A stretch of 64,000 nt of DNA from an uncultured Candidatus Saccharibacteria bacterium (lineage in GTDB: Bacteria; Patescibacteriota; Minisyncoccia; Phycocordibacterales; WO2-35-19). Below the pieces are notes generated by a model. It had not been told where the DNA came from. It did not search any database and saw only the letters and a program-made list of their open reading frames with translations. Positions within the stretch are counted from its first letter, which is position 1. Every line of letters starts with the position of its first letter. A program made the position numbers and the translations under genes. This document shows positions 6,881 through 24,413 of the stretch, piece after piece. Location of the stretch: the NCBI GenBank assembly GCA_964630525.1, contig CAZVUY010000001.1:44883-108882 (forward strand), given 5' to 3'.

Positions 6881-6971
6881 GACACCAATTTTACGAATTC
6901 ATGCGAATGATACGAATATTTTTCTGGTCTTAATTTGTGTCATTCGTGCACATTAGTGGATTAGTGTCACG
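6881..6971. repeat. family-1 TTCGTGT repeat, inverted pair (two ~40-bp copies tail to tail)
   Basis: left copy reverse, right copy forward, 15-bp spacer; between rplX and rplE. Confidence 0.65.
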
Positions 6972-7185
6972 TTACTTTTTTAACATTTGAAACATGGATC
7001 GGGGCGGCTTGCTCGACCACTTTTCCTTTCTCGTTCTGCTTCCTCGCTCGTCGGTGAACCTTCTTCATATTCACGCCGTCGATCAAAACTTTCTCAAGTT
7101 TTGGGAAAGCCTTCACCACCTGGCCTGATTTGCCTTTGTCCTTGCCGGTTAAAACTGTTACTTTGTCTCCTTTTTTGATTTTCAT
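6967..7185 (-). CDS. rplX: 50S ribosomal protein L24
   Basis: MKIKKGDKVTVLTGKDKGKSGQV KOW motif. Confidence 0.9.
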   Translation of the reverse strand: MKIKKGDKVTVLTGKDKGKSGQVVKAFPKLEKVLIDGVNMKKVHRRARKQNEKGKVVEQAAPIHVSNVKKVT

Positions 7186-7216
7186 TTTGGTATTTTAATC
7201 GTGTATTTGTGTCGCA

Positions 7217-7594
7217 CTAAATGACTTCTGGAGCCAAAGACACTATCGCCTGGTGCCCCAATTCAGCTATCTCTCTTGGGATCGGACCAAAAATACGTCC
7301 AGCCTTTGGGACTATCTCCCCTTTCTTCTGCTCGACCACCACCACGGCGTTTTCATCGAAACGGATATAAGAACCATCTTTGCGACGAAGTGGCGCCTTC
7401 TGGCGAACTACCAAACCAAGAAGTACCGCCTTCTTCTTGACGTCTTTTCTTGGTTCGGCCTTCTGAACAGAGAGAACTACCAATTCACCGATCCGAGCGT
7501 AACGCTTTTTTGAACTACCAAGCACCTTAAAAATACGGCCGATCTTGGCGCCTGAGTTGTCTGCTATTTTGACTATGCTTCGTGGCTGAATCAT
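7217..7594 (-). CDS. rplN: 50S ribosomal protein L14
   Basis: MIQPRSIVKIADNSGAKI... uL14 signature. Confidence 0.92.
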   Translation of the reverse strand: MIQPRSIVKIADNSGAKIGRIFKVLGSSKKRYARIGELVVLSVQKAEPRKDVKKKAVLLGLVVRQKAPLRRKDGSYIRFDENAVVVVEQKKGEIVPKAGRIFGPIPREIAELGHQAIVSLAPEVI

Positions 7595-7665
7595 GGTGGT
7601 TGATTGAAAGATTTAATGATTTAAAGATTGAAAGATTTTTTCATAATTTTTCAATTTTCAATTTT

Positions 7666-7929
7666 TTAATTTTGAATTAATATGAAATGCTTATCTTTTG
7701 AAATTGGTCGGCATTCTCTGATAATGACTTGCTCACCGATTTTTTTGGTATTGCCTAGATCGTGAGCCTTGTATTTCTTGCTCACCTTGTGATACTTCTT
7801 GTATTTGGTGTGCTTCACAAAACGGTTTACCAAAACCACAATTGTATCTTTCATCTTGTCGGAGAGAACTACTCCTTTGAGAGTCTTTCCTTTGATTTCG
7901 TTATTCGGTTTTGCTGTTTTTTTATTCAT
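7666..7929 (-). CDS. rpsQ: 30S ribosomal protein S17
   Basis: KTLKGVVLSDKMKDTIVVLV...uS17 fold; position between L29 and L14. Confidence 0.85.
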   Translation of the reverse strand: MNKKTAKPNNEIKGKTLKGVVLSDKMKDTIVVLVNRFVKHTKYKKYHKVSKKYKAHDLGNTKKIGEQVIIRECRPISKDKHFILIQN

Positions 7930-8113
7930 TGTTTAATTTCTGGTTTAAAACGGTCTTGAGCCTAGCGATCTCTCGCTTAAGATTGGCAGCTTGTTTGACG
8001 TTTTTGTTGGCACTGCCGGCTGACCCAAAGCGCAGATCACGAAGAGCGACTCGCTTTTCGGCAATCTCTTTTTCCAAGTCAGCTGGATTCTTTTTTAATA
8101 ATTCTTTGTTCAT
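7922..8113 (-). CDS. rpmC: 50S ribosomal protein L29
   Basis: 63 aa, LEKEIAEKRVALRDLRF pattern; operon position. Confidence 0.8.
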   Translation of the reverse strand: MNKELLKKNPADLEKEIAEKRVALRDLRFGSAGSANKNVKQAANLKREIARLKTVLNQKLNNE

Positions 8114-8124
8114 CGTTGGTTGTA

Positions 8125-8544
8125 TTAAATGCGAGCGACCACCTTAGCCTTCACTGGCATCTTGGTGCCTCCTTTGCGCAACGACTCTGCTGCTACCGCC
8201 GGTGTTACGCCGTCGACTTCAAACATGACCTGACCCGGCAATACTCGGGCGCAATAACCCTCGATATCACCCTTGCCTTTACCCATTTTTACCTCCGCCG
8301 GTTTTTTGGTGAAAGGCATGTCTGGGAAAATACGGATCCACATTCGACCCGTCTTGCCAAGAGCTTTGGTAATAGCTTTTCTGGCTGATTCGATCTGGTT
8401 GGAAGTGACTCTGCCCGGAGTAATAGCTTTCAAGCCAAAAGAACCGAAGGCTACCGAAACACCCCGAGTCGCCGGACTCACCCGTGCCGGGTTGCGACGC
8501 AGGGTTTGCCATTTTCGATATTTTACTTTTTTAGGAAATAGCAT
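8125..8544 (-). CDS. rplP: 50S ribosomal protein L16
   Basis: MLFPKKVKYRKWQ...GKGKGDIEGYCARV uL16 signature. Confidence 0.92.
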   Translation of the reverse strand: MLFPKKVKYRKWQTLRRNPARVSPATRGVSVAFGSFGLKAITPGRVTSNQIESARKAITKALGKTGRMWIRIFPDMPFTKKPAEVKMGKGKGDIEGYCARVLPGQVMFEVDGVTPAVAAESLRKGGTKMPVKAKVVARI

Positions 8545-8560
8545 GGTAGTAAGTTAAATA

Positions 8561-9223
8561 TTATTTGGCCTTGTTAAAAATATCACCCTTGTAGATCCAA
8601 ACCTTTATACCAATCTTACCAAGTGGCAAAATAGCCTCATAAAAAGCATAATCGATGTCAGCTCTCAAGGTCTGGAGTGGGATTCGGCCCAATTTCTTGG
8701 TCTCTACTCGCGCCATGTTTGAACCACCCATGATACCAGAGAGGGTGATTTTCACTCCTTTCACATCGCGGTTAGCGTAAGCCTTCTCGATCATTTGTTT
8801 GACCACCCTTCTGAAGGCTAGCCTTTTCTCCAAACCTTCAGCGATCATCTGAGCAATGATCATGGCACTAGATTCTGGTGACTTGACCTCTTTGATGTCG
8901 ATCTTGAGATCTTCTTTGACACTCAAACTATTTTTCTTCATAAACCGGACAATATCATCACGAAGCTTGGTCATACCTTCACCACTGCGGCCAATGATCA
9001 TGCCTGGTCGTGAGCTCTCAATCAAAATCCTGAAAGTTTTGGCGTTGCGCTCCATTTCAATCGAGTTAACGAAAGAACCCTTCAGTCTTTTCTTCAAATA
9101 TTCGTGAATCAAAACGTCTCCCTTCAAATTTTCTTTGTATTTATACTTCACACCAAACCAGCGCGATTTCCAATCGCGGATGATCCCTAGTCTATGTGCA
9201 TATGGATGAACGGTGTGAGTCAT
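8561..9223 (-). CDS. rpsC: 30S ribosomal protein S3
   Basis: MTHTVHPYAHRLGIIRDWKSRWF... KH domain GRSGEGM. Confidence 0.92.
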   Translation of the reverse strand: MTHTVHPYAHRLGIIRDWKSRWFGVKYKYKENLKGDVLIHEYLKKRLKGSFVNSIEMERNAKTFRILIESSRPGMIIGRSGEGMTKLRDDIVRFMKKNSLSVKEDLKIDIKEVKSPESSAMIIAQMIAEGLEKRLAFRRVVKQMIEKAYANRDVKGVKITLSGIMGGSNMARVETKKLGRIPLQTLRADIDYAFYEAILPLGKIGIKVWIYKGDIFNKAK

Positions 9224-9236
9224 GGTAATTTAAAAA

Positions 9237-9614
9237 TTATTGTTTGCTTTTGTTTTTAGTTTTTCGCTTTTCATTTTTCGCTTCTTGTTCCAGCAGGACA
9301 ATCTTGACGTGAGAAGTGCGCTTGCGGATTGGGTGAGCGGCTCCATGAGCGACCGGCATCCTTCGATACAAAATCTTGCCCGCATCGACAGTCAAAGATT
9401 TGACCAAAAGGTTATCGGTATCCAAACCAATATTTTTGGCATTAGCGATAGCTGAATTTAAAAGTTTGTGCAAAGGAGTCACCGCTCTCTTGGTAATAAA
9501 CTCAAGCCTATTTTTGGCCTCAGCGACTGATTTGCCCTTGATAGCCGTAGCCACCAAGCGCACCTTGCGCGGCGACTGACGATAATCATTGAGTTGTGCG
9601 GTTACTGTGTTCAT
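9237..9614 (-). CDS. rplV: 50S ribosomal protein L22
   Basis: SPRKVRLVATAIKGKSVAEA...uL22. Confidence 0.9.
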   Translation of the reverse strand: MNTVTAQLNDYRQSPRKVRLVATAIKGKSVAEAKNRLEFITKRAVTPLHKLLNSAIANAKNIGLDTDNLLVKSLTVDAGKILYRRMPVAHGAAHPIRKRTSHVKIVLLEQEAKNEKRKTKNKSKQ

Positions 9615-9617
9615 ATT

Positions 9618-9658
9618 TTATATTCGTGCCATTCGTACTAATTCGTGTATTGGTGTCG
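9618..9658. repeat. family-1 TTCGTGT repeat copy
   Basis: TATTCGTGCCATTCGTACTAATTCGTGTATTGGTGTCGGG; ends 4 nt before the rplV start codon. Confidence 0.65.
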
Positions 9659-9660
9659 GG

Positions 9661-10005
9661 TTATTTTTTGGCACCCTCTGCCGCTGATTTGGCACTCTTA
9701 GCGGCTGCGATTTCGGCCTCCTTCTTCTTAGCCTCAAGATCTTTCTGCATCTTACCACCGTGCTTGATAAATTTGCGAGTCAATGAAAATTCGCCGAGAC
9801 GATGACCGACCATATCCTCAGAAACCAGGACTTCTATGTGGTCTTTGCCGTTGTGGACACCAAAAGTGAAACCGACCATTTCTGGAGCGATCACACAAGC
9901 TCTCGACCACGTCTTAATAACCCCAGTCTCATGAGGTTTTTTGCCTTCTACTTTTTTGAGGACCCTTTCGTCAACGTAAGGGCCTTTTTTGAGTGACCTA
10001 GACAT
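9661..10005 (-). CDS. rpsS: 30S ribosomal protein S19
   Basis: [20 protein letters not shown]...HNGKDHIEV uS19. Confidence 0.92.
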
Positions 10006-10149
10006 GAATTATTGAAAATTTCTCCCCCACTAAGGACCATAAGGTTTAATGGAGCAAATTAAAAGCCCAAGAATCGAGCTTGGACTACATACTATCAGAT
10101 AACCTTCCATTGTCAAACCCCTATCCCAATGAGGGCGCTTCAAGCTTGA

Positions 10150-11049
10150 CTAGACGAGCAAATCCTTAAATTTGGCGACCAATTTGTCGATTTTGGGGGC
10201 GATCACCAGCTGGCAGTAGGCCGCTTCAGGGTGATTTTTGAAATAGTCTTTATGGTAGTCTTCCGCTTGGTAAAACTTGGGCAAGAGCTTGATTTCGGTC
10301 ACGATCGGTTTGTCGAAATAGTGCTCCGCTTCAAGCTTTTTTATAAAATTTTCAGCTACCTCCTTTTGGGTCTCATTCGTATAGAAGATAACGGAACGGT
10401 ACTGAGTGCCCACATCCGCCCCTTGGCGATTGAGAGTGGTCGGGTCATGCACCGCAAAGAAAACATGGAGTAAAATTTCAAAAGAAATTTGACTCGAATC
10501 ATATTCAATCTCAATCACTTCGGCGTGGCCGGTTTGGCTAGTCGACACTTCTTCATAAGTTGGGTTTTCTTTCTCGCCCCCAGCGTAGCCCGGCAACACT
10601 CGCAAAACTCCTCTTAAATTCTGAAAAGTGGCTTCCGTACACCAGAAACAGCCGCCACCAAAATACACTTTTTCTACAAAATTCCTGCTATCTTTGGCGA
10701 CAAACTCCATTGAAATAGAATTGACACAATGTCTCACGTTTTTCTGAGTCAATTGTTCACCCTCAAAGACATGGCCCAGATGGGCGCCACATCTTTCACA
10801 AGTGATTTCCGTCCTCACTCCATCTTTATCCAACACCCTTTTCACTGCCCCCGGCACCTCGGCATCAAAACTTGGCCAGCCACAATGCGCGTCAAACTTG
10901 TCCTCCGATCGATAGAGTGGCGCACTACATCTTCGACATAAATAAACTCCTTCTTCATTGAACTCATCATACTTGCCCGAAAACGGCGCCTCCGTCCCTT
11001 TCTCCTCGATCACCTTTTTCTCTTCCTCAGTTAATTGATTGATTTGCAT
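10150..11049 (-). CDS. msrAB: bifunctional methionine sulfoxide reductase MsrB-MsrA fusion
   Basis: N-terminal SelR/MsrB CGWPSF...RCGAHLGHVF; C-terminal MsrA GGGCFWC...TQYRSVIF. Confidence 0.85.
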   Translation of the reverse strand: MQINQLTEEEKKVIEEKGTEAPFSGKYDEFNEEGVYLCRRCSAPLYRSEDKFDAHCGWPSFDAEVPGAVKRVLDKDGVRTEITCERCGAHLGHVFEGEQLTQKNVRHCVNSISMEFVAKDSRNFVEKVYFGGGCFWCTEATFQNLRGVLRVLPGYAGGEKENPTYEEVSTSQTGHAEVIEIEYDSSQISFEILLHVFFAVHDPTTLNRQGADVGTQYRSVIFYTNETQKEVAENFIKKLEAEHYFDKPIVTEIKLLPKFYQAEDYHKDYFKNHPEAAYCQLVIAPKIDKLVAKFKDLLV

Positions 11050-11058
11050 GTGTATTAT

Positions 11059-11646
11059 TTATCTCGACTCCCCTTCGAAATCTTTGACCCATTCGCCGAG
11101 CTCCATATTTTTGGTGTCGAGATGAATCCAAACACTTTTGCCCACCGAAGGAGGGGTAGCGAAGCTTTCTCCCGGCTGGCGCTCTGCAAAGTTGGCCACT
11201 GCTCGGCCGTCTGTAATACTTATATTTTGAGGTGCTATCCGATCGCCCAGAAACATGGCACCAGTCCCTTTGTAACCCCGACCATCCCTAACCGCCGCCA
11301 CTACGTAAAAGAAGGTACCGCTCCCCGAAGATTGTTGGGTCAGAAACATCACTGCATCTTGGTCTCCATCTTTATCCAAATCAGCGTAGACCGGCTCACT
11401 AAAAACCATTACCACTTCTTTTGAAGCAGAACCGGGCGCTATTTCTTTTTCTATCTTGCCATTTACCAATTGGTAATCCTGCCCAGCGATTTTGTAAGTT
11501 AGGTTCAAGGGATCATTGACCTCCACCAGTTCCCCTTTTGACTCAAGTATAAAATTCACTAGCCGATCAACCCAAAACTTTTGAGTGAAAATGAGTCCGA
11601 GACCGATGACAATAAGAACCAGAAGAATAATTTGGATTTTTTTCAT
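11059..11646 (-). CDS. membrane-anchored hypothetical protein
   Basis: MKKIQIILLVLIVIGLGLIF signal-anchor; no recognised domain; ORF upstream extension overlaps a terminator, so the start is set at the internal Met. Confidence 0.55.
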   Translation of the reverse strand: MKKIQIILLVLIVIGLGLIFTQKFWVDRLVNFILESKGELVEVNDPLNLTYKIAGQDYQLVNGKIEKEIAPGSASKEVVMVFSEPVYADLDKDGDQDAVMFLTQQSSGSGTFFYVVAAVRDGRGYKGTGAMFLGDRIAPQNISITDGRAVANFAERQPGESFATPPSVGKSVWIHLDTKNMELGEWVKDFEGESR

Positions 11647-11659
11647 AGATTCATTATAT

Positions 11660-11698
11660 AACAAAAACTTGCCGTGGTTTCGCAAGCGAAACCACGGC
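11660..11698 (-). terminator. rho-independent terminator (minus strand)
   Basis: GCCGTGGTTTCGCTTGCGAAACCACGGC hairpin followed by AAGTTTTTGTT on minus strand. Confidence 0.6.
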
Positions 11699-11706
11699 AG
11701 TTGACA

Positions 11707-12018
11707 TCATTTCCTTGGGCGCCCTCGTCGAAGAAGCGAGGCACAGAGCCGGGACTCAATTCCCAGTATTTTTTCTCGAACGGTCACAAGGGGCGTATTC
11801 CTCTCTCGTTTGAGAACCTTTACCACCGAAAAAGGCCCAGCAGACCAAGCACTTAGACCAAATTCCGAGCCAATCATCCATCCACCGATCCCCTTCCGAG
11901 TCCAAACGGTTTCCCCGGGCCTCAGATTCCGGGGATAAGGAATCCGCTCGATCCTGGCTTCCCAAGCTTTTTTGCTGATTTTAGGCAAAACTTTCTCCTT
12001 CCGCCTGAGAATATACAA
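11707..12018 (-). other. GC-rich ~350-nt island with overlapping ORFs in several frames; either a TTG-initiated 103-aa basic ORF or an unidentified structured RNA
   Basis: GC content clearly above neighbours; ORFs in 3 frames overlap; ends at a terminator on the minus strand. Confidence 0.25.
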
Positions 12019-12062
12019 TCATGTAGAGCTTTAGTCAATAGGACTAAATCATAAGACATTTC

Positions 12063-12476
12063 CTACCACGCCCCGAGAATAAAACCGAAAATAATGAAAA
12101 GTACGAGGTTGTAACCAGCTTGAATCAAAAAGCGGGCCCAAGAAACTTTGGCCGAATCATTGTTCCACATACTTCCAGCAGCAATGGTCGGCATTATAAA
12201 TGCAGCCCATATCCAAAGAGCATTTTCAATACCACTCGCCCCTTGCCAACCTTTGATGTAATACGCGAGCACCCACGCCTGAAAAAGAGCGAGGACGAAT
12301 TGGGTCAAATAAAGTTTCCCCACCCCCTTCTGCATTTCTCTCCTCCTTTCCAAATCAAGCTCGGTTGCACCGATCACCTCCAGCCACTTTTTACCAAAAA
12401 GCGGTCCGTACCACACGTAGCCGAGCACCATAGCCAGCACCCCACACACCACCACCGCCAAATAATTTATCTCCAT
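12063..12476 (-). CDS. DUF1761-family membrane protein
   Basis: MEINYLAVVVCGVLAMVLGYVWYGPLFGKKW... typical DUF1761. Confidence 0.6.
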   Translation of the reverse strand: MEINYLAVVVCGVLAMVLGYVWYGPLFGKKWLEVIGATELDLERRREMQKGVGKLYLTQFVLALFQAWVLAYYIKGWQGASGIENALWIWAAFIMPTIAAGSMWNNDSAKVSWARFLIQAGYNLVLFIIFGFILGAW

Positions 12477-12623
12477 GTTTGATTTATTTAAAAATTATTA
12501 AAAACCCTAGTCTTAATCTTAACAAACAAATCATAGCAAGGTAATTAAGGATTAAATTTTTCGATCATCTTTTAACACCTTTTCCTTGACTATACTTAAA
12601 CAAATAGAATACCCTAAAGATAG

Positions 12624-13139: not shown

Positions 13140-13146
13140 GCCGAGG

Positions 13147-13182: not shown

Positions 13183-13185
13183 TCA

Positions 13186-14184: not shown

Positions 14185-14228
14185 TTTTATTCGTGTCATT
14201 CGAGACTATTCGTGTATTGGTGTCGAGT
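14185..14228. repeat. family-1 TTCGTGT repeat copy
   Basis: TTTTATTCGTGTCATTCGAGACTATTCGTGTATTGGTGTCGAG. Confidence 0.7.
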
Positions 14229-14229
14229 A

Positions 14230-15975
14230 TTACATCCTTTCTGGTACCTTTATACCCAAAAGATGGAGGCCATTTTTGAGAATGTGATAGACCGACTCAG
14301 TGAGTGCCACCTTGTAAGAAGAAGTTGGGTCTTCTTCACTTATTATTTTGTTATTACCATAAAAACTATTGAAAGCTGAGGCGAGTTCGGTGAGATAAGT
14401 GACCAAATGGTGCGGTGCGTACTCCTGCCCAGCCCGCTCGACAATTTCCGGAAAACGATAGAGCATTCTTTCGACTTCAGTCGGTTCCCACTCCGCTAAA
14501 GCTTCGCGGGATAAATCCCAATTTTGAAGTACCTCTTCGCCCCCCTCTCCTAACCTAGGAGAGGGGCTGGGGGTGAGGTTGGCTTTTTCAAGCACAGATT
14601 TTGCCCTTACTGCCGTATATTGTAAGTATGGTCCACTGTCCCCTTCAAAAGAAATCGACTTTTCAAAATCAAAAACAATATCGCCCCCGATCGCTTGTCG
14701 CAGTATCGAATACTTGATCGCACCTATACCAACTTGCTCTGCTATTTTTACTGCCTCTTCTCCATCTATAACTTCTGGTATTCTGCCATTCTGATGCATT
14801 TTTTCTAAAACCCTGTCTTGGATCTGCTGAATCAAACTTCCTGCAGTGATCACGTCCCCTGTTCTTGAAGACATCTTGCCGGTCGGTAGCCGCAACATGC
14901 CGTGAGACAAATGCTTCAACTTACCCTTTAATTCTGCGAAAATCTCTCCAATAGCTACTTCAACAACTTTGAAAAAAGAGTCTTGCTCGTTTGCTGTTAC
15001 TGTTATTGATTGAACGTAGTTGCCAAAACTGCTTATCTTTAATTTAGCCAAACCGAGCTCCTTGGCTTCATAAGTTGGCAAACCATCTTTATTTAAGAAA
15101 ACTCTGGTGTGAGTCTTTGGCTCAAAATTTTCTCCCCGAAAAACAACCGCTCCTTCTGATTCTTCAAAAATTTTTCCTGTATTTTCCTTTACCAACTCCT
15201 GCCCTATCTCCCCCGATTCGCTTTCAAAAAAATGTTTGTCAAAATGACTATCTAATTTTTTATAGGTTGATTCGAAATATTCTAAAGAGGTCTCTCTGCC
15301 GAGGTCATATAGTTGATTTATGTCTTGATCTTCTTTCGTATAGATTTTTTTATTTATATCGGTAGCCACACGACGCATTTCATCACTACTTTCGTACATG
15401 TTAGATCCAGCAGCATAGGCTTTACCCCAAAAAGTAACTTTATCTGAAATCGGAGCTTCGCTAGGAGGTACAAATTTATCTTGGAATGAAGTGACTCCGA
15501 GAATGGCTTTTGCCACATGTAAACCAACATCTCCATGATAGCTACAAGTTTTAACATCAGCATTGTTTGCCTTCAAAATTCTAGCGACTGATTCACCGAC
15601 CGCATTGTTCATCAGGTGGCCAATATGAAATTCCTTGAAAGGGTTTGGTTGGGTATGCTCGATAACAATCTTTTGACCAGCTAGCAATTTTGTCTCTCCA
15701 AATTGTTCACCCTGATCATTGATCTCCTTTATCGATTCAGCAAAAAATTGTTTGGAAAGTAAAAGATTGATGAATCTTGGAGGAGCAAATTCTATAGCTT
15801 CAATTTCTGCAATCTTGGTGGCCTTCAATTTTTCAAAATTAGCCTCGGCGTCTGAACCATTTATGATCAAAGTATAGTCTCCATTTTCAAGCTCTTTTGG
15901 GTGCACCAAAACCAGACCCTCTAATTCCAGCGTCTCCTTCACCCACTTTTCAATTTTTCCTTTTATTCGTGTCAT
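14230..15975 (-). CDS. argS: arginine--tRNA ligase
   Basis: HTQPNPFKEFHIGHLMN HIGH region; C-terminal DALR-type end ...KVPERM; carries an in-frame GC-rich repeat insertion (TPSPSPRLGEGG). Confidence 0.88.
   Translation of the reverse strand: MTRIKGKIEKWVKETLELEGLVLVHPKELENGDYTLIINGSDAEANFEKLKATKIAEIEAIEFAPPRFINLLLSKQFFAESIKEINDQGEQFGETKLLAGQKIVIEHTQPNPFKEFHIGHLMNNAVGESVARILKANNADVKTCSYHGDVGLHVAKAILGVTSFQDKFVPPSEAPISDKVTFWGKAYAAGSNMYESSDEMRRVATDINKKIYTKEDQDINQLYDLGRETSLEYFESTYKKLDSHFDKHFFESESGEIGQELVKENTGKIFEESEGAVVFRGENFEPKTHTRVFLNKDGLPTYEAKELGLAKLKISSFGNYVQSITVTANEQDSFFKVVEVAIGEIFAELKGKLKHLSHGMLRLPTGKMSSRTGDVITAGSLIQQIQDRVLEKMHQNGRIPEVIDGEEAVKIAEQVGIGAIKYSILRQAIGGDIVFDFEKSISFEGDSGPYLQYTAVRAKSVLEKANLTPSPSPRLGEGGEEVLQNWDLSREALAEWEPTEVERMLYRFPEIVERAGQEYAPHHLVTYLTELASAFNSFYGNNKIISEEDPTSSYKVALTESVYHILKNGLHLLGIKVPERM
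14540..14583. repeat. family-2 GC-rich palindromic repeat inside the argS CDS (in frame)
   Basis: CCCCCTCTCCTAACCTAGGAGAGGGGCTGGGGGTGAGGTTGG. Confidence 0.65.
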
Positions 15976-16004
15976 TCGTTTCCAATTCGTGTATTAGTGT
16001 CGTG
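15962..16004. repeat. family-1 TTCGTGT repeat copy; supplies the argS start codon and first codons
   Basis: TTTTATTCGTGTCATTCGTTTCCAATTCGTGTATTAGTGTCGTG. Confidence 0.7.
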
Positions 16005-16054: not shown

Positions 16055-16092
16055 CATCAAAAGTGGCCGCTCGGAAATACACGAGCGGCCAC
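16055..16092 (-). terminator. rho-independent terminator after the HEAT-repeat gene
   Basis: GTGGCCGCTCG-GAAATACAC-GAGCGGCCAC stem followed by a T-run on the minus strand. Confidence 0.45.
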
Positions 16093-18280: not shown

Positions 18281-18282
18281 CT

Positions 18283-19482
18283 TTATTTTTTACCGCGCAA
18301 CACTTTATCAATCTTCCTGGCAATCGCTACAAAATCTTTTTCTTTTTTGCCCCGAGTCGTCTCGGCTGCACTACCAAGTCTTATACCTGATGGATCCATC
18401 GGACTACGAGTTTCGTTTGGAATTGTATTTTTGTTGACTATAATCCCCGCCTTTTCGAGCTTATCGCTCGCCTCTTTCCCTGAAATCCCCTCCCCACCCA
18501 TCCATGTATCTACCAAAATCAAGTGAGTGTCGGTACCTCCTGAAATAACTCTCCACCCCAATTTTGAAAGTTCATCAGAAAGAGCTTTGGCGTTTTTGAT
18601 CACCTGCTTTGCATATTTTTGAAATGCAGGAGAAGCAGCTTCCTTGAGAGCCACCGCCACCGCCGCGATCTGGTTGAGGTGTGGGCCACCTTGGAGCCCA
18701 GGGAAAACGGCTTTGTCTATGAGCTCTGAAATATTTTTATCTTCTCCTTTGGCATTTTTAATCGTCACATCATTCCTCGAAAAAATCATGGCCGAACGTG
18801 GGCCCCTGAGCGTCTTGTGTACGGTAGTCGTCACCACATGAGCGCAAGCAAAAGGAGATGGGTAGGCCTTGCCCGCCACCAGCCCGGCAAAATGCGACAT
18901 GTCGACCATAAGTATCGCCCCCACTTTATCGGCAATTTCTCTAAACTTTTTAAAATCTACAATTCGCGGATAAGCAGTAAAGCCAGCGACAATAATGCTC
19001 GGTTTTTCTCTTCTGGCAATCTCTCTCACTTCTTCGTAGTCGATTTGCTCTGTCTCTTTATTTACTCCATATGCTACCTGCTCCCAAAATTTACCAGTAG
19101 CGGAAACTTTGTGTCCATGAGTGAGGTGACCACCATGATCGAGCGACATCCCCATGATCTTGCCGCCTTTTGGCACAAGGGCTAAGTACACAGCAAGATT
19201 TGCTGGACTCCCCGAAAGCGGCTGCACGTTGACAGACCATTTTGAAGTAAGCCCGAAAAGTTTGAGAGCTCTCTCTTTGGCCAAGTTTTCAATTTTGTCT
19301 ACAAACTCATTACCGCCGTAATACCGCAGTTTAGAATACCCTTCTGCGTATTTGTTGGTCAGCTCGCTCCCCAAGGCCGCGAGCACATCTTTAGAAACAT
19401 AGTTCTCAGAAGCAATCAGGTTTATAACGCTCTTCTGCCTCTTCTTCTCACTCTCAATTAATTTTTTTATTTGTATATCCAT
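18283..19482 (-). CDS. glyA: serine hydroxymethyltransferase
   Basis: LIASENYVS...; PLP-site pattern HVVTTTVHKTLRGPR. Confidence 0.92.
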   Translation of the reverse strand: MDIQIKKLIESEKKRQKSVINLIASENYVSKDVLAALGSELTNKYAEGYSKLRYYGGNEFVDKIENLAKERALKLFGLTSKWSVNVQPLSGSPANLAVYLALVPKGGKIMGMSLDHGGHLTHGHKVSATGKFWEQVAYGVNKETEQIDYEEVREIARREKPSIIVAGFTAYPRIVDFKKFREIADKVGAILMVDMSHFAGLVAGKAYPSPFACAHVVTTTVHKTLRGPRSAMIFSRNDVTIKNAKGEDKNISELIDKAVFPGLQGGPHLNQIAAVAVALKEAASPAFQKYAKQVIKNAKALSDELSKLGWRVISGGTDTHLILVDTWMGGEGISGKEASDKLEKAGIIVNKNTIPNETRSPMDPSGIRLGSAAETTRGKKEKDFVAIARKIDKVLRGKK

Positions 19483-19536
19483 AAGAAAATAGTTATTTGG
19501 TAATATTCGGTTCTGCTAAACTTATATCATCTGATT

Positions 19537-20175
19537 TTATTTACTTACTAATTTTTTGACGTGCATATAAACATCTGTGTAAACACTTTCTTTATCTTTA
19601 GAGGCGTCAACTTTGTAGCATTTTACTTTCTTAAAAAAAGACTCGTACCCATCAAAAACTCTTTGGTGATATTTTCGGGTTTGATTATCAAAATGATTAT
19701 TTCCGTCTCTATTCTTACTACGACTTCGAGCAATTTCTGGAGTTATTCGTAAATAAATATAATTGACACTTAATTCAGCTAGTATATTTTTTCTTAAAAA
19801 CCAAAAAATCTTTTCAAGATTTAAGTTTTGTTGTCCAAACAGTTGAAAAGAAAAAGTTGATGTATCAAACCTATCAGAAACAACATTTACTCCTTTTTTT
19901 AAACTCGGAATTATGAGCTCCTGCACATGAGACGCTCTTGAAGATACAAATCCAAGTAACATTGGTAGTGGTGGCACATTTTTTGACTTGGAATCAAGCA
20001 ACACATTTCTTACCATTTCACCAAACACTGTTCCTCCGGGTTCCCTAGTATATAAAAAACTGGAAAAATCTTTTTTTAAACGGTTTATAACTTCTGTTTT
20101 TCCAGATCCATCTAAACCCTCTATCACTATAAACCTGGCCTTTCCTTTACTCATATCCACTATGCTATCATACAA
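19537..20175 (-). CDS. tmk: thymidylate kinase
   Basis: IVIEGLDGSGKT P-loop and TREPGGT. Confidence 0.8.
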   Translation of the reverse strand: MYDSIVDMSKGKARFIVIEGLDGSGKTEVINRLKKDFSSFLYTREPGGTVFGEMVRNVLLDSKSKNVPPLPMLLGFVSSRASHVQELIIPSLKKGVNVVSDRFDTSTFSFQLFGQQNLNLEKIFWFLRKNILAELSVNYIYLRITPEIARSRSKNRDGNNHFDNQTRKYHQRVFDGYESFFKKVKCYKVDASKDKESVYTDVYMHVKKLVSK

Positions 20176-20201
20176 CTAAATTTATTTTTAACCCAAGACC
20201 A

Positions 20202-21557
20202 ATGGACTTAACTTCACTAAAACACACAAAAAAGGGCCTTTCAAATGGTGGGATGATTCTAGCCCTGGATACTGGTGCAATCATAAATCCGGAAGCAGAA
20301 GCAATGCTTCAAGCTCTACATTCCCGTTCTATAGGTGGCATAAACAGTCACCTTGAGGTGCTAGCCAAAAAAGGAGCCGAAAACTTCATGGCCAACTTCT
20401 ATGTCGGCTACGGCCACAAGTCTATAGGAGATTGTGGAACCATCACTCTTTTCATCGAGGGAGTATCGATGCTTGCAGCCAAAGCGATCCAAGATTGGCC
20501 ACTCTATTCAGGACAAGAAGCCTCGACCAGATATATAGATTTTGCCAACCAACCGTTTGTAGATCCAAAAGGCACAAAACAGTCAAAAGGAGTCCTCGAA
20601 AATTGGCGCTCATTTTACATGAAGGGTTTGAGTAAACTTGGAGAAGAACTACCAAAAAGATTTCCTCGGGGCGAAAATGAGGATGAAAAAATCTATACCA
20701 AAGCAATCAAAGCTAGAGCTTTCGATATTATGAGAAGTTTCTTGCCTTCAGGAGCGACTACCAACCTAGCTTGGCACACCAATCTTCGACAAGCGGCCGA
20801 CCACGTGATGAGACTTCGCCATCATCCACTCAAAGAGGTTCGGGATATTGCGGAAAAGCTTGAAGAACTACTTTTAGAAACTTTCCCGAGTTCTTTTGGG
20901 CACAAGAGGTACGACAATACAGAGAATTTCAATAAAGAATGGATGCAAAAAGAATATTATTACACCAATAAAAAATCTCCAGAATTTGCTCTTTCCAGAA
21001 ATTCGATAAACAAAAAAACTCTCTCTAAATACAAGAGGATACTTTCAAAAAGACCGGTTAAAACAGAGGTTCCAAAAGAGATAGCAGAGGCCGGACAAGT
21101 CCAATTTGAATTTTTGCTCGACTTTGGCTCATTCCGAGATATTCAAAGACATAGAGCTGTATTGCAGAGAATGCCACTGGTCACCATGGACCATGGCTTC
21201 GGCGAATGGTACTTGGGTGAACTACCAAAAGATTTAGCAAAAGAAGCTTTGGCCCTCCTTAAAAAACAGAAGCAAGAAATAAAAAAGTTAAAACTCGACA
21301 AAACAGAAGAACAATATTACATACCAATGGGTTATAAACTACCCAATAAACTCACAGGGTCAATACCTCATATTGTTTATCTTTCAGAGCTACGTTGTAC
21401 TCGCTTTGTACATCCAACTTTAAGATCAATCGCTATAAAAATGGCAGAGGCTTTGAGAAAAAAATTTAAAAATGAAGGTCTCACCGTCCATACCGATAAA
21501 GATCCTGATAGATTTGATGTAAACAGAGGCAAACACGACATAGTTGCAAAAAATTAA
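20202..21557 (+). CDS. divergent, possibly tandem-duplicated ThyX-like flavin-dependent thymidylate synthase (tentative)
   Basis: two halves with ThyX-like motifs (LHSRS...SHLE; TNLAWHTNLRQAADHVMRLRHHP similar to NARSLMNFLNLRADSHAQ; RHR near C-terminus); embedded in a dut-glyA-tmk-dcd cluster. Confidence 0.35.
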   Translation: MDLTSLKHTKKGLSNGGMILALDTGAIINPEAEAMLQALHSRSIGGINSHLEVLAKKGAENFMANFYVGYGHKSIGDCGTITLFIEGVSMLAAKAIQDWPLYSGQEASTRYIDFANQPFVDPKGTKQSKGVLENWRSFYMKGLSKLGEELPKRFPRGENEDEKIYTKAIKARAFDIMRSFLPSGATTNLAWHTNLRQAADHVMRLRHHPLKEVRDIAEKLEELLLETFPSSFGHKRYDNTENFNKEWMQKEYYYTNKKSPEFALSRNSINKKTLSKYKRILSKRPVKTEVPKEIAEAGQVQFEFLLDFGSFRDIQRHRAVLQRMPLVTMDHGFGEWYLGELPKDLAKEALALLKKQKQEIKKLKLDKTEEQYYIPMGYKLPNKLTGSIPHIVYLSELRCTRFVHPTLRSIAIKMAEALRKKFKNEGLTVHTDKDPDRFDVNRGKHDIVAKN

Positions 21558-21580
21558 CATTCTTTTATACTGCAAATTCT

Positions 21581-22252
21581 ATGGCACTGAGCAATAAAAA
21601 AATTCTGGAAGAAATAAAAAAGGGCGACATAATCATCACCCCTTTCAAAAAAGAAAATTTGGCCACCTCCAGTTATGACGTTACCCTTGGTGAATATTTT
21701 TTCGCTGAAAAACCATCAAAACACTTCCAAAACATTTTCAATATTTACGAAAAAAACCACGTCGATAGTGTTTGGGGCACTACCCCACTTAGAGCAAAGA
21801 CTGCGAGTGAAGTATTCAAAGATTATAAATTTGAATTTGGCAACATATCACCTAAAGATAAAGTGATTCTGCTTGCTCCCGGAGAAACCATTTTGGCTCA
21901 TACCAACGAGTTTATCGGCGGTCGCAAACATATCACCACCATGATGAAAGCTAGGTCTTCTTTGGGTAGAAGCTTCATCGAGGTTTGCAAATGCGCCGGT
22001 TGGGGAGATGTGGGATATATAAATCGTTGGACAATGGAGATCACAAACAATTCGAATCATTACTATATTCCACTGGTGGTCGGGAGAAGAATTGCTCAAA
22101 TTGTATTTTTTGAGACAGGTGAAATAACTGACCACGATTATACTAAAAGCGGCAAATACAACAACACGACTGATATAAAACAAACTATTAAAAACTGGAG
22201 TCCGATGAGCATGCTCCCGAGACTGTATCAGGATAAAGAAATTAAAAAATGA
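21581..22252 (+). CDS. dcd: dCTP deaminase
   Basis: ILEEIKKGDIIITPF...NLATSSYDVTLGEYF typical Dcd N-terminus. Confidence 0.85.
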   Translation: MALSNKKILEEIKKGDIIITPFKKENLATSSYDVTLGEYFFAEKPSKHFQNIFNIYEKNHVDSVWGTTPLRAKTASEVFKDYKFEFGNISPKDKVILLAPGETILAHTNEFIGGRKHITTMMKARSSLGRSFIEVCKCAGWGDVGYINRWTMEITNNSNHYYIPLVVGRRIAQIVFFETGEITDHDYTKSGKYNNTTDIKQTIKNWSPMSMLPRLYQDKEIKK

Positions 22253-22290
22253 AAGAGGTTCCGAGCAAAAGCTGAAACCTCTAAATATTC

Positions 22291-22512
22291 CTACACCAAC
22301 CGAATTACCGCGCTTCTCCTCCAAACGTCAATAATCTTCTCATCACCAAATTGATCTCTAATTAATTGACATTCTTCTTCACTACCCAATTTAGCTACTA
22401 TAGCCAACTTCTCTCCTCTGGCTGGAACGTGCTCAGATGAAAGAATCTTGACCGTAACTCGTTTATTTTTAGGCATTTTTGAAACACAAATAACCCAGAA
22501 TACTTTTTCCAT
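22291..22512 (-). CDS. small hypothetical protein (73 aa)
   Basis: AAGGAG 7 nt upstream of ATG; MEKVFWVICVSKMPKNKRVTVKILSSEHVPARGEKL... Confidence 0.4.
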   Translation of the reverse strand: MEKVFWVICVSKMPKNKRVTVKILSSEHVPARGEKLAIVAKLGSEEECQLIRDQFGDEKIIDVWRRSAVIRLV

Positions 22513-22534
22513 AATAATCTCCTTGTGCTTAGGA

Positions 22535-22569
22535 TTTAAAAAAACAAAAAAACTGCCCCAGCGGGGCAA
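22535..22569 (-). terminator. rho-independent terminator after rplK
   Basis: TGCCCC-GCT-GGGGCA then GTTTTTTTGTTTTTTT on minus strand. Confidence 0.65.
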
Positions 22570-22672
22570 GTTTCAAAAGGTTTTGAATTCAAAACCTGCC
22601 CCCTAAGTCAGTTTAGAAAAAGGAGTAGTAAATCCAGACCAAGTTTTTGTAAATTTATTATGTAACATTAGA

Positions 22673-23095
22673 TTATCCCTTCACCTCGACGCCCATAGAC
22701 CTGCACTGCCCAGCGATAATCTTGATCGCTGCTTCTAGGTCGTTGGCGTTTAGGTCTACCATCTTCTTTTCGGCGATTTCTTCGAGTTGTTTTCGGGTAA
22801 TAGTACCCACTTTTTGAACTGGTGGCTTGCCGGCACCCTTCTCGATACCTAGAGCCTTCATGATCAAACTTGAGGCTGGTGGGGTCTTTAGGACAAAGTC
22901 GAAAGTCCTGTCTTCATAGATAGAAATCTCGGCTGGCACCAAGCCGTCCATTTCTCGAGTAGCGTCGTTGAACTGTTTGACGAATTCACCAATATTAATA
23001 CCAGCGGGACCGAGTGCAGTACCTACCGGAGGCGCCGGGGTTGCCTTACCCGCCGCAATCACTAGTTTTATTTTTTTGCTTACTTTTTTTGCCAT
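22673..23095 (-). CDS. rplK: 50S ribosomal protein L11
   Basis: [30 protein letters not shown]... uL11. Confidence 0.93.
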
Positions 23096-23097
23096 TA

Positions 23098-23138
23098 CAT
23101 GACACTAATTACGAATTGGCACGAATAACACGAATGGG
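23098..23138. repeat. family-1 repeat, reverse orientation (left flank of GxxExxY gene)
   Basis: reverse complement CATTCGTGTTATTCGTGCCAATTCGTAATTAGTGTCATG. Confidence 0.65.
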
Positions 23139-23507
23139 TTTCAAGTATTTATTTCTAAAATTTACTATCAGACCCAGATCCAGACCGCTCGCGTTCAAAT
23201 ACCTATTCATTTGATAATAATCTTCCTTAGTGACCAAGTCTTTGGCCTTTAGGTCGATTAGAAGCATATTGTTTATAACAAAATCTACCCTATTTGTAAA
23301 CTGGTTCTCAATTTTATCTATAGACAGCTCCTTTTCCCTTTCAAATTTTATGTTATTTTCCTTTAAAATAGTTTCGAAGTAATCAGCGTACTGTTTTTCT
23401 CGACAATAGCGACCCAGTTGATTGTGCACCTTAAAAAGTAGGCCGTTTATTAGATATGATAGCTCCTTGTGAATGATCCCTCTTTTATTCGTGTCATTCG
23501 AGTTCAT
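23109..23507 (-). CDS. GxxExxY-family protein (PD-(D/E)XK-like), inserted between nusG and rplK
   Basis: ~130 aa, LINGLLFKVHNQLG...E..Y pattern typical of the GxxExxY family; flanked by inverted copies of the TTCGTGT repeat. Confidence 0.6.
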   Translation of the reverse strand: MNSNDTNKRGIIHKELSYLINGLLFKVHNQLGRYCREKQYADYFETILKENNIKFEREKELSIDKIENQFTNRVDFVINNMLLIDLKAKDLVTKEDYYQMNRYLNASGLDLGLIVNFRNKYLKPIRVIRANS

Positions 23508-23526
23508 TCGTGTATTGGTGTCGAGT
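23483..23526. repeat. family-1 repeat, forward orientation (right flank of GxxExxY gene; encodes its first codons)
   Basis: TTTTATTCGTGTCATTCGAGTTCATTCGTGTATTGGTGTCGAG. Confidence 0.7.
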
Positions 23527-24071
23527 TAGATTTTCTTTACTTGCAAGAAGTCCAGCTCTACCGGGGTCTCTCGACCAAACATTGGCACCATCACCTTCAC
23601 CTTACCCCTATTTTCATCGACTTCACCCACCTTCCCTTCCAAATCTTTGAACGGACCGTCAACAATCTTGACCGCATCATCTACCGACAAATCAATATTG
23701 TGTTTGACTTGTTCCGAGCTCATTCGCTTAAAGAGCTCGTCGACTTCGTTTTTGTCGAGTGGTACCGGGAAAACGCCGGAGCCTACAAACCCAGTCACTC
23801 TTGGGGTGTTACGGACGACATACCAAGAATCATCGGTCACGATCATATCTACCAAAATATAGCCGGGGTAAATTTTCTCTTCCTCTTCTACCCTCTTGTT
23901 ACCTTTGATCTTGATTTTCTTTTCGGTCGGCACGATCACATTGAAAATCTTGTCTTCCATGCCCAAAGACTCGATACGCTGCTTCAAGTTGCGCATCACT
24001 GTATTTTCATAGCCGGAATAGGTATGGATAGCATACCAGTTTCGACCTTCTTTGATCTGTTGTTTAGACAT
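23526..24071 (-). CDS. nusG: transcription termination/antitermination factor NusG
   Basis: NWYAIHTYSGYENTV NGN domain; C-terminal KOW. Confidence 0.9.
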   Translation of the reverse strand: MSKQQIKEGRNWYAIHTYSGYENTVMRNLKQRIESLGMEDKIFNVIVPTEKKIKIKGNKRVEEEEKIYPGYILVDMIVTDDSWYVVRNTPRVTGFVGSGVFPVPLDKNEVDELFKRMSSEQVKHNIDLSVDDAVKIVDGPFKDLEGKVGEVDENRGKVKVMVPMFGRETPVELDFLQVKKI

Positions 24072-24084
24072 AATTTAGAAAGAT

Positions 24085-24336
24085 TTAGCTGATAAATAAA
24101 TTCAAGGCTCGGGAAAAGATAAGATCAAAGACTCCCAAGAAGGCCGCTACGACAACAGAAATCAAGATCACCACGACAGAGAAGATAACCGACTGTCGCT
24201 TGCTTGGCCAATTGACATGAGCCAATTCACCTTGAGTCTCGCGAAAATAACTTAAGATTGACATGAATTTTATATTATTGGTAACCCCTATTAAAAAACC
24301 CCTCGCGGGGTTTCTTAATTTAATTGTTGCCTCCAT
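24085..24336 (-). CDS. secE: preprotein translocase subunit SecE
   Basis: 83 aa, single C-terminal TM, position upstream of nusG. Confidence 0.75.
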   Translation of the reverse strand: MEATIKLRNPARGFLIGVTNNIKFMSILSYFRETQGELAHVNWPSKRQSVIFSVVVILISVVVAAFLGVFDLIFSRALNLFIS

Positions 24337-24371
24337 TATACTCTCCCTCCAAATAAAGTCAAGTTCACAAC

Positions 24372-24413
24372 TTTATTCGTGTCATTCGAGTTCATTTGTG
24401 GATTGGTGTCGAG
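24372..24413. repeat. family-1 TTCGTGT repeat copy
   Basis: TTTATTCGTGTCATTCGAGTTCATTTGTGGATTGGTGTCGAG. Confidence 0.7.

Follow-up and report, generated by a model that had tools for sequence, protein, structure and literature searches.

A repeat of about 42 nt recurs between the ribosomal protein genes of the DNA analysed here (64,000 nt in full length, from a Zambryskibacteria-like CPR/Patescibacteria genome; hereafter the window), and inverted copies of it enclose a small GxxExxY gene. The question raised by this locus is what kind of element the repeat belongs to and how it is related to the gene. The repeat probably forms the ends, or terminal arms, of small palindromic elements, a family of selfish DNA confined to CPR/Patescibacteria; on the best reading, these are selfish elements of the MITE, IVS and RPE kind, and their full-length form is the GxxExxY cassette.

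Arm copies in the window

Eight arm copies of about 42 nt and a truncated ninth one (nine arms in 18 kb) were found, all between 6.8 and 24.4 kb, and no arm was detected between 25 and 64 kb of the window. Exact or near 42-mer matches with 0-3 mismatches were obtained at 14186-14227, 23484-23525 and 24372-24413, and the looser ungapped scoring and the profile HMM added 6879-6920(-), 6930-6971(+), 9619-9660(+), 15962-16004(+) and 23098-23140(-). With a chance expectation of 0 for 42-mer matches in 100 shuffles, the repeat reported in the preliminary description is real. The strand of an arm denotes its orientation relative to the consensus of that description (TTTATTCGTGT...), and '+' arms read in sense as CTCGACACCAATACACGAATGAACTCGAATGACACGAATAAA because the genes here lie on the minus strand. 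The following features were assigned:

6879..6920, strand -: arm of an ORF-less inverted pair, downstream-gene side; ends 8 nt before the rplE (L5) ATG at 6870
6930..6971, strand +: arm of the ORF-less pair, upstream-gene side; holds the rplX (L24) stop TGA, 6967-6969
6879..6971, no strand: whole ORF-less palindromic element in the rplX-rplE spacer; one long imperfect RNA hairpin
7186..7216, strand +: rplN-rplX spacer with truncated arm (about 7199-7216), in sense TGCGACACAAATACACGA; 26/42
9619..9660, strand +: solo arm filling the rpsS-rplV spacer; directly abuts the S19 stop (0 nt) and leaves 4 nt to the L22 ATG
14186..14227, strand +: solo arm; 2 nt past the argS stop, with 36 nt left to the next ORF; 39/42 as in arm A
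15962..16004, strand +: solo arm in the argS leader, with a 1-nt indel; supplies the called argS ATG at 15975
23098..23140, strand -: cassette arm B; includes the codons for the C-terminal ...PIRVIRANS and the stop; reaches to within 2 nt of the rplK ATG at 23095
23109..23507, strand -: ORF of 132 aa for the GxxExxY / PDDEXK_3 nuclease; same direction as nusG and rplK
23484..23525, strand +: cassette arm A; 0 nt after the nusG stop; encodes the GxxExxY N-terminal MNSNDTNK
24372..24413, strand +: solo arm; 0 nt after the SIMPL-family stop, just upstream of the secE promoter-like site; 40/42 as in arm A

An arm is made up of GACACYAAT and, behind it, three CGAAT units at intervals of 8-10 nt. 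Each arm holds 3-4 sub-repeat units of 8-10 nt, and AAT ends fall on consensus positions 12, 20, 30 and 39. The direct sub-repeats are phased, as described earlier, but with a spacing of 8-10 nt instead of about 10 bp. Cassette arm A shares 93-95% identity with three window copies, and the '+' arms behind nusG, the SIMPL gene, rpsS and argS start 0-2 nt past the stop codons. The leftmost copies form an inverted pair, as had been noticed, but the pair starts at 6879 and not at 6881, with 9 nt and not 15 nt between the arms in the 42-nt register; the arm at 6879..6920, read on the + strand from the outer to the inner end, is GCGACACCAATTTTACGAATTCATGCGAATGATACGAATATT. Arms also supply start codons, and the two cases named before (argS, ATG at 15975; GxxExxY, ATG at 23507) were both found inside arms. 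A distance of 0-40 nt between arms and start codons applies to L22 (4 nt), rplE (8 nt) and rplK (2 nt), but the start of secE is probably about 107 nt away and not 35 nt, because the gene caller gives a SecE of 59 aa. A terminator-like hairpin is located at 16063-16092, upstream of the argS-leader arm.

As RNA, the element at 6879-6971 has a folding energy of -23.5 kcal/mol (z = -3.0). The arms of the cassette pair over 400 nt in MFE and centroid structures alike. At the Rfam gathering score the arms matched no family, and the only matches in the window were tRNAs.

The GxxExxY cassette and its nuclease

The cassette between nusG and rplK has a length of about 430 bp and contains one gene, which is bracketed by inverted arms, just as the preliminary description had it. 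The two arms are inverted terminal repeats; however, they represent distinct end types and are not copies of each other. The last ~10 codons of the ORF lie within the reverse arm, and its ATG lies within arm A. The ORF scored 77.6 bits against TIGR04256 (NCBIfam, cut-off 35) and 80.5 bits against PF13366 / PDDEXK_3 (Pfam, cut-off 22), and is a member of these families. GxxExxY/PDDEXK_3 proteins are listed as being of unknown function (PMC3424549). Among 47 homologues the predicted catalytic residues E37, D75, K87 and K89 are invariant. An AlphaFold2 model was obtained with a pLDDT of 84, and its best PDB matches were all PD-(D/E)XK proteins (Cas4, lambda exonuclease, Hjc, tRNA endonuclease), every one with E > 1e-3. 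By this model the product is predicted to be a PD-(D/E)XK protein with conserved putative catalytic residues, the fold matches being generic only. No PADLOC anti-phage defence family was matched by the ORF at E <= 0.01. A recognisable transposase was not found in the cassette, so that the longer element with the same ends as the ORF-less pairs encodes a small nuclease of 132 aa and not a known transposase. The arm-encoded C-terminus is nearly invariant among the 47 homologues and uses ATT CGT repeatedly, which suggests that the nucleotide sequence itself is constrained.

The window protein was matched by 1546 cluster representatives, and the link between GxxExxY genes and arms was strict in all copies examined. 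Inverted periodic arms of the CGAAT/CAAAT type were present on 16 of 16 genes from two subfamilies (12/12 fetched loci and 4/4 of the second subfamily); the check named earlier, whether other GxxExxY genes are flanked in the same way, thus favoured the element reading. Decayed genes are still armed, one with an in-frame stop (L133) and one with a frameshift (L083). The cassettes occupy unrelated sites: nusG-rplK, parA-parB, after a pilC-like gene, tsaD-tsaE, pilB-pilC and upstream of rpoB. Furthermore, GxxExxY domains with arm-encoded linkers on either side are located inside RecG, FolD, GatB, an M50 protease and GT4 enzymes.

Distribution and orthologous sites in other genomes

The repeat extends beyond the window, as had been anticipated: a 21-base degenerate pattern matched at least 114 stretches of genome contigs from at least 45 CPR assemblies. 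Its spread is patchy, and among 99 loci (442 kb) picked through rplK, S3 or GxxExxY proteins only 5 carried arms. In 848 kb of related loci, 50 short arm pairs were convergent, with spacers of -5 to 71 nt, and none was divergent or tandem; all 50 fold into hairpins (median -31 kcal/mol, z -5.2). Five further pairs with arms 346-372 nt apart each enclose a GxxExxY (PF13366) gene in the same orientation (5/5). Outside the window the inverted pair without ORF occurs most often, with a median length of 93 nt over the 50 pairs (3-4 nt of flank at either end counted in), and ORF-less pairs and solo arms together far outnumber the cassettes.

For the comparison of empty and filled sites, relatives with 83-92% identical flanking proteins were used, and such sites were found for all three forms, cassette, ORF-less pair and solo copy, as the preliminary description had called for. 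The nusG-rplK spacer measures 18 nt in L120 vs 433 nt in the window, the rplX-rplE spacer 10 nt in L201 vs 96 nt, and the rpsS-rplV spacer 5 nt in L201 and 16 nt in L204-207 vs 46 nt. Some orthologous spacers of close relatives are not empty but hold different palindromic mini-cassettes. At nusG-rplK, GIY-YIG mini-cassettes were found in L129, and cassettes for four-helix-bundle IVS proteins with periodic ATAAGTT arms in L144/L150; the latter carry a non-nuclease, so the cargo need not be the mobility enzyme. Because empty and filled sites are about 10% diverged, the exact insertion junctions are unreadable, and at any single orthologous site ancestral presence followed by loss may account for the sequences.

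The earlier view of the cargo-free pair as MITE-like stands with a qualification. The 6879-6971 pair and the 50 pairs elsewhere are short and non-coding with terminal inverted repeats, the family is multicopy within a genome, and its insertions differ between relatives; a target-site duplication, however, was not found. Duplications of 2-5 bp at boundary offsets of 0-5 were no more frequent in 47 pairs than with shuffled partners, and classical DDE-type transposition is thus unsupported.

Copies were also observed inside genes. The window copies sit in mRNA spacers and not in rRNA; in the related copy of L071 an arm pair replaces a 33-nt hairpin tip of the 23S rRNA (about 1880-1913 of the Rfam LSU model) with 163 nt. 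TsaE, TatD, UvrB, TopA and further proteins contain in-frame solo arms, read without exception in one hydrophilic frame (DTNTRMxxNDTN), and an in-frame arm pair is present inside MnmA.

Origin of the elements and comparison with known systems

As an alternative, the arms could be a cis-regulatory module of the host, that is a phased array for transcription factors or RNA-binding proteins, an internal promoter, or a translation leader for highly expressed genes. Such a role would agree with the position of window copies directly upstream of start codons in sense orientation, with systematic differences between stop-codon-side and start-codon-side arms at positions 9 and 21, with the bias of solo arms to the stop-codon side (35 vs 13), and with the promoters carried by Correia-type MITEs (PMC10969869). 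However, the arms did not score as sigma-70 promoters, and the highest-ranking promoter-like site in the region (TTGACT-16-TATAAT, 11/12) lies outside, just downstream of the 24372 arm. Close relatives have the same spacers without arms, the arms show a preferred but not a constant direction with respect to transcription (L084 runs opposite to L089, and L025/L014 to the majority), and arm sequence forms the coding ends of nuclease genes. The transcription-factor array, which the preliminary description had offered as an alternative, is poorly supported because copies occur inside a 23S rRNA gene and in frame in many unrelated ORFs. A regulatory module is therefore considered quite unlikely.

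An unlikely explanation, too, is that the elements act as RNA only, with an RNase III processing stem that frees the GxxExxY mRNA or separates cistrons, and are inherited vertically and decay with no DNA mobility. The stable hairpin in every pair, the long-range stem around the ORF and the copy on a 23S rRNA helix tip would be expected in this case, and the Coxiella IVS is alike in its 428 nt, inverted repeats, tandem heptamers before the ORF and RNase III excision (PMC4990558). Against it, the complementarity between an element's own two arms was 0.39 vs 0.46 with the arms of other elements; own arms are no more complementary than foreign ones, which indicates that the motif is conserved and not the pairing. 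Single arms, which are unable to form the stem, are common and conserved, and insertion events are required because of the many unrelated sites and the patchy spread over distant CPR lineages. It is very improbable that the gene is a free-standing homing endonuclease with incidental arms, occupying the same site only in related genomes by cleavage and recombinational repair. PD-(D/E)XK homing endonucleases exist (I-Ssp6803I), and a small nuclease gene between conserved genes, its presence or absence at nusG-rplK among relatives and the GIY-YIG mini-cassettes in the same spacer of L129 would suit this explanation; yet cassettes of one family occupy many unrelated sites and are far fewer than ORF-less pairs and solo arms, and conservation of the arms reaches much further than that of any flanking target sequence.

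In the preferred reading as selfish palindromic elements, the unit consists of two distinct, inverted arms with their GACAC ends outward; one arm holds the start codon and N-terminal codons of the GxxExxY protein, the second its conserved C-terminus and stop. The non-coding derivatives would be pairs lacking the ORF (~65-150 bp) and arms on their own, each of 42 nt or 14 codons. The elements would land in transcribed DNA, namely in cistron spacers of conserved operons, at an rRNA helix tip and in frame in protein surface loops, and would be expressed by read-through of the host operon. At the RNA level the arms would pair into a long imperfect stem and, by analogy with classical 23S intervening sequences, a plausible RNase III substrate. 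Copies presumably arise by active insertion and not by decay only; in-frame intragenic solo arms are hard to derive by transposition of pairs. Tentatively, and in analogy to RAYT and REPINs, the GxxExxY nuclease might recognise CGAAT-type arms and mobilise them in trans.

The likeness to the ORF-bearing 23S IVS of Coxiella and Leptospira comprises a length of ~430 nt, inverted terminal repeats whose stem encloses a single small ORF, short repeats in tandem immediately before that ORF (GACAGAT x3 in Coxiella), sporadic spread and decaying ORFs (PMC4990558), and in addition the 23S helix-tip copy of L071 and the nusG-rplK spacer shared with the four-helix-bundle cassettes of L144/L150. In contrast, the window copies lie in mRNA spacers with a GxxExxY nuclease as cargo instead of an S23p/four-helix-bundle protein, ORF-less pairs and single arms abound, and hairpin potential only is observed here. 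With the REPIN-RAYT system the family shares predominant inverted doublets (here 50 convergent short pairs and no divergent or tandem ones) that are non-autonomous with a short spacer, singlets, one protein gene flanked by inverted repeats, and many extragenic copies with no obvious target duplication (PMC3116915, PMC3337134). Unlike RAYTs, the gene matches only PDDEXK_3/GxxExxY and no HUH/Y1 transposase; the arms are arrays of direct sub-repeats and not short palindromes, copies also occur in genes and rRNA, and the family is patchy across lineages, whereas RAYT/REPIN is mostly vertical.

Rickettsia palindromic elements (RPEs) are likewise palindromic repeats, have no known transposase and populate the reduced genomes of bacteria that depend on a host; they lie in frame in unrelated housekeeping genes, where they are translated as hydrophilic inserts (PMC10969869); the arm family differs by its protein-coding full-length form, its phased CGAAT sub-structure and its CPR-wide hosts. 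Correia/NEMIS and ERIC MITEs resemble it in their ~100 bp, terminal inverted repeats, mRNA hairpins and location between co-transcribed genes by start codons, and RNase III cleaves Correia at its TIRs; the TA target duplication, IHF site and outward promoters of Correia were not found in the arm family (PMC10969869). TIGR-Tas arrays adjoin a Nop-domain Tas gene and consist of ~36-nt tandem units with dual spacers of 8-10 nt (PMC12045711). A TIGR-Tas guide array was considered and rejected, as the units here are 8-10 nt in inverted pairs, and the adjacent genes comprise nusG, rplK and further r-protein genes but no Nop-domain gene.

For genome annotation, the arms make false start codons, extend or replace stops, and fuse a nuclease domain into RecG, FolD, GatB and others. 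Insertions in CPR rRNA are well known, and short unclassified inserts are unexplained (PMC11270868). The family unites rRNA intervening sequences, MITE/REPIN-like extragenic palindromes and in-frame selfish DNA of the Rickettsia type in CPR, and each GxxExxY copy examined lies as cargo within a palindromic element whose arms share one motif, which offers these proteins a concrete, testable role. More doubtful is the wider idea that GxxExxY (PF13366) nucleases are the missing mobility or maintenance enzymes of the whole class of IVS-like palindromic mini-elements, each recognising the phased sub-repeats of its own arms and copying pairs, single arms and itself into transcribed DNA such as operon spacers, rRNA helices and protein loops. 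If true, this would mean a RAYT/REPIN-like partnership on a PD-(D/E)XK fold and a function for a large unknown family, and the origin of rRNA intervening sequences would be explained.

Arms and the GxxExxY cassette in the window

The 42-mer put forward in the preliminary description was present at three places in the window with at most three mismatches (14186, 23484 and 24372) versus none in 100 shuffles, and five further arms, an arm being one copy of the family-1 repeat, were recovered by ungapped scoring, a repeat finder and a profile HMM. What had been described as at least eight copies of one repeat was found as eight arms and a truncated remnant, and no arm was detected past 24.4 kb of the window in the profile search.

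Family-1 arms in the window
6879-6920, minus strand, arm of the ORF-less pair (further arm)
6930-6971, plus strand, arm of the ORF-less pair (further arm)
7186-7216, truncated arm remnant in the rplN|rplX spacer
9619-9660, plus strand, arm (further arm)
14186, arm (42-mer match)
15962-16004, plus strand, arm (further arm)
23098-23140, minus strand, arm B of the cassette (further arm)
23484-23525, plus strand, arm A of the cassette (42-mer match)
24372, arm (42-mer match)

Read from the outer end inward, the arm consensus is CGCGACACCAATACACGAATGCACACGAATGACACGAATAAAA, in which a GACACYAAT terminus is followed by three CGAAT units at a spacing of 8-10 nt; three window copies show 93-95% identity to arm A. 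The genes around the arms are on the minus strand. In sense, the first base of the plus arms lies 0-2 nt past the stop codon of nusG, SIMPL, rpsS and argS, while the stop codon of rplX (TGA) lies inside its arm. The proximity to start codons that had been described was measured as 0-36 nt between the 3′ end of an arm and the next start codon. Oppositely oriented copies bracketing a GxxExxY gene between nusG and rplK were confirmed as arms A and B, and the enclosed ORF (23109-23507) was identified as a GxxExxY/PDDEXK_3 protein by profile matches. As had been proposed, the repeat supplies the first codons of this gene: the ATG and first eight codons are written in arm A, and the last ten codons (...PIRVIRANS and stop) in the inverted arm B.

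Homologues of this protein with 64-85% identity occur across many Parcubacteria, with E37, D75, K87 and K89 invariant and the arm-encoded C-terminus YLKPIRVIRANS, written in repeated ATT CGT codons, almost invariant. An AF2 model (pLDDT 84) predicts a minimal PD-(D/E)XK fold, whose neighbours in the PDB, all weak (E > 1e-3), were the generic PD-(D/E)XK proteins Cas4, lambda exonuclease, Hjc resolvase and tRNA-splicing endonuclease; a sequence search among solved structures gave no relative at E <= 1. Membership in defence systems was rejected, as no defence-system profile matched the ORF. Four sequencing runs each yielded the window DNA in independent assemblies, and the source of this DNA, judged by sequence, is a Zambryskibacteria-like CPR organism (S3 protein 85% identical to named Zambryskibacteria proteins).

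Distribution among CPR genomes and at orthologous sites

A degenerate pattern of 19 fixed bases and two two-fold positions was searched in 596 Gb of contigs, where about 4 matches are expected by chance according to our own estimate. At least 114 stretches from at least 45 assemblies matched, so that the repeat extends well beyond the window. Nearly all matches listed were true arms, and the assembly labels among them were Zambryski-, Taylor-, Nealson-, Staskawicz-, Portnoy-, Yanofsky-, Nomura- and Doudnabacteria, Paceibacterota, Minisyncoccia and 'Saccharibacteria'. Phage vectors for the arms were rejected, viral contigs giving 0 pattern matches.

With the profile, 198 arms were found in 848 kb of loci. 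Fifty short pairs (spacer -5 to 71 nt) were convergent, and none was divergent or tandem. All five convergent pairs with a spacer of 346-372 nt contained a GxxExxY ORF with its start in one arm (translated DTNTRMNSNDTNK) and its end in the opposite one. When the ORFs of 1.22 Mb of fetched CPR DNA were all searched with jackhmmer, 12 GxxExxY matches were obtained, corresponding to 11 genes, two of them pseudogenes, all surrounded by inverted arms of family 1 or of diverged CGAAT/CAAAT variants. The same arrangement was seen in all four genes of a second subfamily (tsaD|tsaE, pilB|pilC, after a 2926-aa protein and upstream of rpoB), and the inverted flanks therefore hold for all GxxExxY genes examined, in two subfamilies. 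A second homology search, aimed at non-CPR GxxExxY genes, again returned mostly CPR proteins, and the arm link is thus known for CPR genes. Just upstream of rpoB in L212-L215 (L-numbers denote fetched CPR loci), a GxxExxY gene stands in tandem with a GIY-YIG mini-gene that has inverted arms of its own, the genes upstream differing between contigs.

Orthologous sites were compared in 80 rplK-anchored metagenome loci, whose nusG|rplK spacers are between 5 nt and more than 450 nt long. As a hotspot, this spacer holds differing mini-elements (L119-L150), among them an ACAACC-periodic ORF-less palindrome in L142.

Content of the nusG|rplK spacer in relatives with L11 83-92% identical
L120: 18 nt, empty
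L122 and L128: 36-37 nt
L123, L145 and L133: GxxExxY cassette (decayed in L133)
L129: GIY-YIG gene with its own inverted repeats
L144 and L150: gene for a four-helix-bundle '23S rRNA IVS protein' with ATAAGTT-periodic inverted arms
Several other loci: ORF-less hairpins of other families

In S3-anchored loci, rpsS|rplV measures 5 nt (L201) or 16 nt (L204-207) versus the 46-nt spacer with a solo arm in the window, and rplX|rplE 10 nt (L201) versus the 96-nt spacer with the pair, other palindromes being present at rplX|rplE of L202 and L204-207. Empty and filled states thus both occur among relatives at all three sites. Of the 99 loci (442 kb) with rplK, S3 or a GxxExxY protein as anchor, only L199/L200, which are the window's own strain, and those with the three nusG|rplK cassettes carried family-1 arms. 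Such a patchy distribution, together with the many unrelated sites and the near-identity of copies in one genome, is the pattern of a proliferating element.

Other repeats were observed in the same regions. Between two minus-strand ORFs of the window lies a near-perfect palindrome (38727-38814; 29-nt arms, 97% complementary, -44.8 kcal/mol), which is assigned to a second family with a conserved loop because its 30-nt loop, when reverse-complemented, closely resembles that of the hairpin in the nusG|rplK spacer of L127. The 71-nt rpsQ|rplN spacer (7595-7665) is an imperfect palindrome of 8-nt units (TTGAAAGA / TTGAAAAT), and units resembling these were seen at 47263-47299 and 54404-54438; in L201 the length of this spacer is 4 nt, in L204/L206 14 nt. 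In L202, the S19|L22, L14|L24 and L24|L5 spacers hold arrays of ACGAAT/ACGAAA units that lack the GACAC terminus, which suggests a sister arm family. Within a plus-strand ORF (47862-48656), a 33-nt purine-rich unit (AAAAAAGAGATAGAAGAAAGAAGAGAG-like) is present four times in tandem at 48072-48197. In the window (6334-10005) and L199-L207, the r-protein cluster comprises only rpsS to rplE, not the full S10-spc operon, with an MsrA/B gene and a phosphoribosyltransferase-like gene on the opposite strand as its neighbours.

Arms in RNA structure, rRNA and proteins

Every short pair folds into a strong hairpin (median -31 kcal/mol, z -5.2); the ORF-less pair of the window (6879-6971) reaches -23.5 kcal/mol (z -3.0), and the cassette arms pair across the ORF in MFE and centroid structures alike. 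Compensatory pairing was rejected, arm similarity being 0.39 within an element versus 0.46 between elements; because stop-side and start-side arms in addition differ at fixed positions, the ends are regarded as two distinct types with a common motif and not as a compensatory stem. In L071 (155-318), a family-1 inverted pair lies in a 23S rRNA gene, where 163 nt replace the 33-nt hairpin tip of the Rfam model; a separate 270-nt insertion follows some 40 model positions farther downstream. L013 and L087 likewise carry arms close to 23S fragments and a group I intron.

The reading frame is open for 150 nt on both sides in 21 of the 134 testable arm units of the fetched loci, the arm length of 42 nt corresponding to 14 codons. 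Solo arms stand in frame in TsaE, TatD, UvrB, TopA, an aminoacyl-tRNA synthetase and others (L108, L041, L073, L057, L082, L070 and L075), always in one hydrophilic frame, (R/H)DTNTR(M/I)xxNDTN, and a pair stands in frame in MnmA (L068, 6379-6458). An exhaustive phmmer search of the protein library gave 1546 cluster representatives at E <= 1e-3, and about one third of the top 150 matches carry the GxxExxY domain in frame within long proteins, with arm-encoded low-complexity linkers on either side.

GxxExxY domains in long library proteins (embedded cases: P0401, P0365, P0435, P0375, P0404, P0387 and P0378)
RecG (P0401): between the helicase lobes
FolD: between its two domains
GatB (P0435): embedded
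M50 protease: embedded
GT4 glycosyltransferases: embedded; P0404 additionally holds three translated ORF-less pairs
Pilins: N-terminal fusion

Nature of the elements

Several identities were considered for the arms. They hold TCGACA-N17-TCGAAT, yet score below the threshold of a sigma-70 scan, and a promoter reading was rejected; the best sigma-70-like site of the region, near-consensus TTGACT-16-TATAAT at 24335-24362 (minus), lies just downstream of the 24372 arm and upstream of secE. The 83-aa ORF 24085-24336 is probably over-extended because the gene caller gives SecE 59 aa. The arms matched no Rfam family, and TIGR-Tas arrays were dismissed on account of the wrong unit size and the absent Tas gene. 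Strict polarity relative to transcription was reduced to a bias, flipped examples being present. Intein-like splicing of the embedded domains was rejected on inspection, the junctions lacking Cys/Ser/Thr and His-Asn signatures. It is also unlikely that a tRNA-endonuclease-like enzyme splices the RNA, since the host frame runs on through the inserts and single arms are read in the hydrophilic frame. A TAA/TA duplication was suspected at a few junctions (TTA on both cassette sides), but no excess of target-site duplications was found across 47 pairs tested; the absent duplication and the single arms standing alone in genes argue against a DDE-type mechanism.

The inverted-arm element occurs in three forms (cassette, ORF-less pair and solo arm), resides in transcribed DNA, is co-oriented with the host operon in every cassette, and has been gained and lost between relatives. 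Its expression would be by read-through, and the arms may form an RNA stem that RNase III could cut, by analogy to the Coxiella IVS (428 nt, inverted repeats, tandem heptamers ahead of the ORF and excision by RNase III; PMC4990558) and to Correia elements (PMC10969869). More speculatively, the CGAAT array may be a recognition site of the nuclease, which would then mobilise the arms. Such a role is suggested by the sequence pairing, GxxExxY genes always being accompanied by CGAAT/CAAAT arms and the four-helix-bundle and GIY-YIG cassettes by unrelated arms; common descent could, however, also account for this constant pairing.

Full-text literature searches gave no description of these elements and only passing mentions of GxxExxY, and a survey of CPR rRNA insertions reported short unclassified inserts and IVS-protein ORFs but neither GxxExxY genes nor mRNA-spacer elements (PMC11270868). 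The elements are of a known kind, that of MITE/REPIN, IVS and RPE; new are the design of the arms, the partner nuclease and the wide range of targets.
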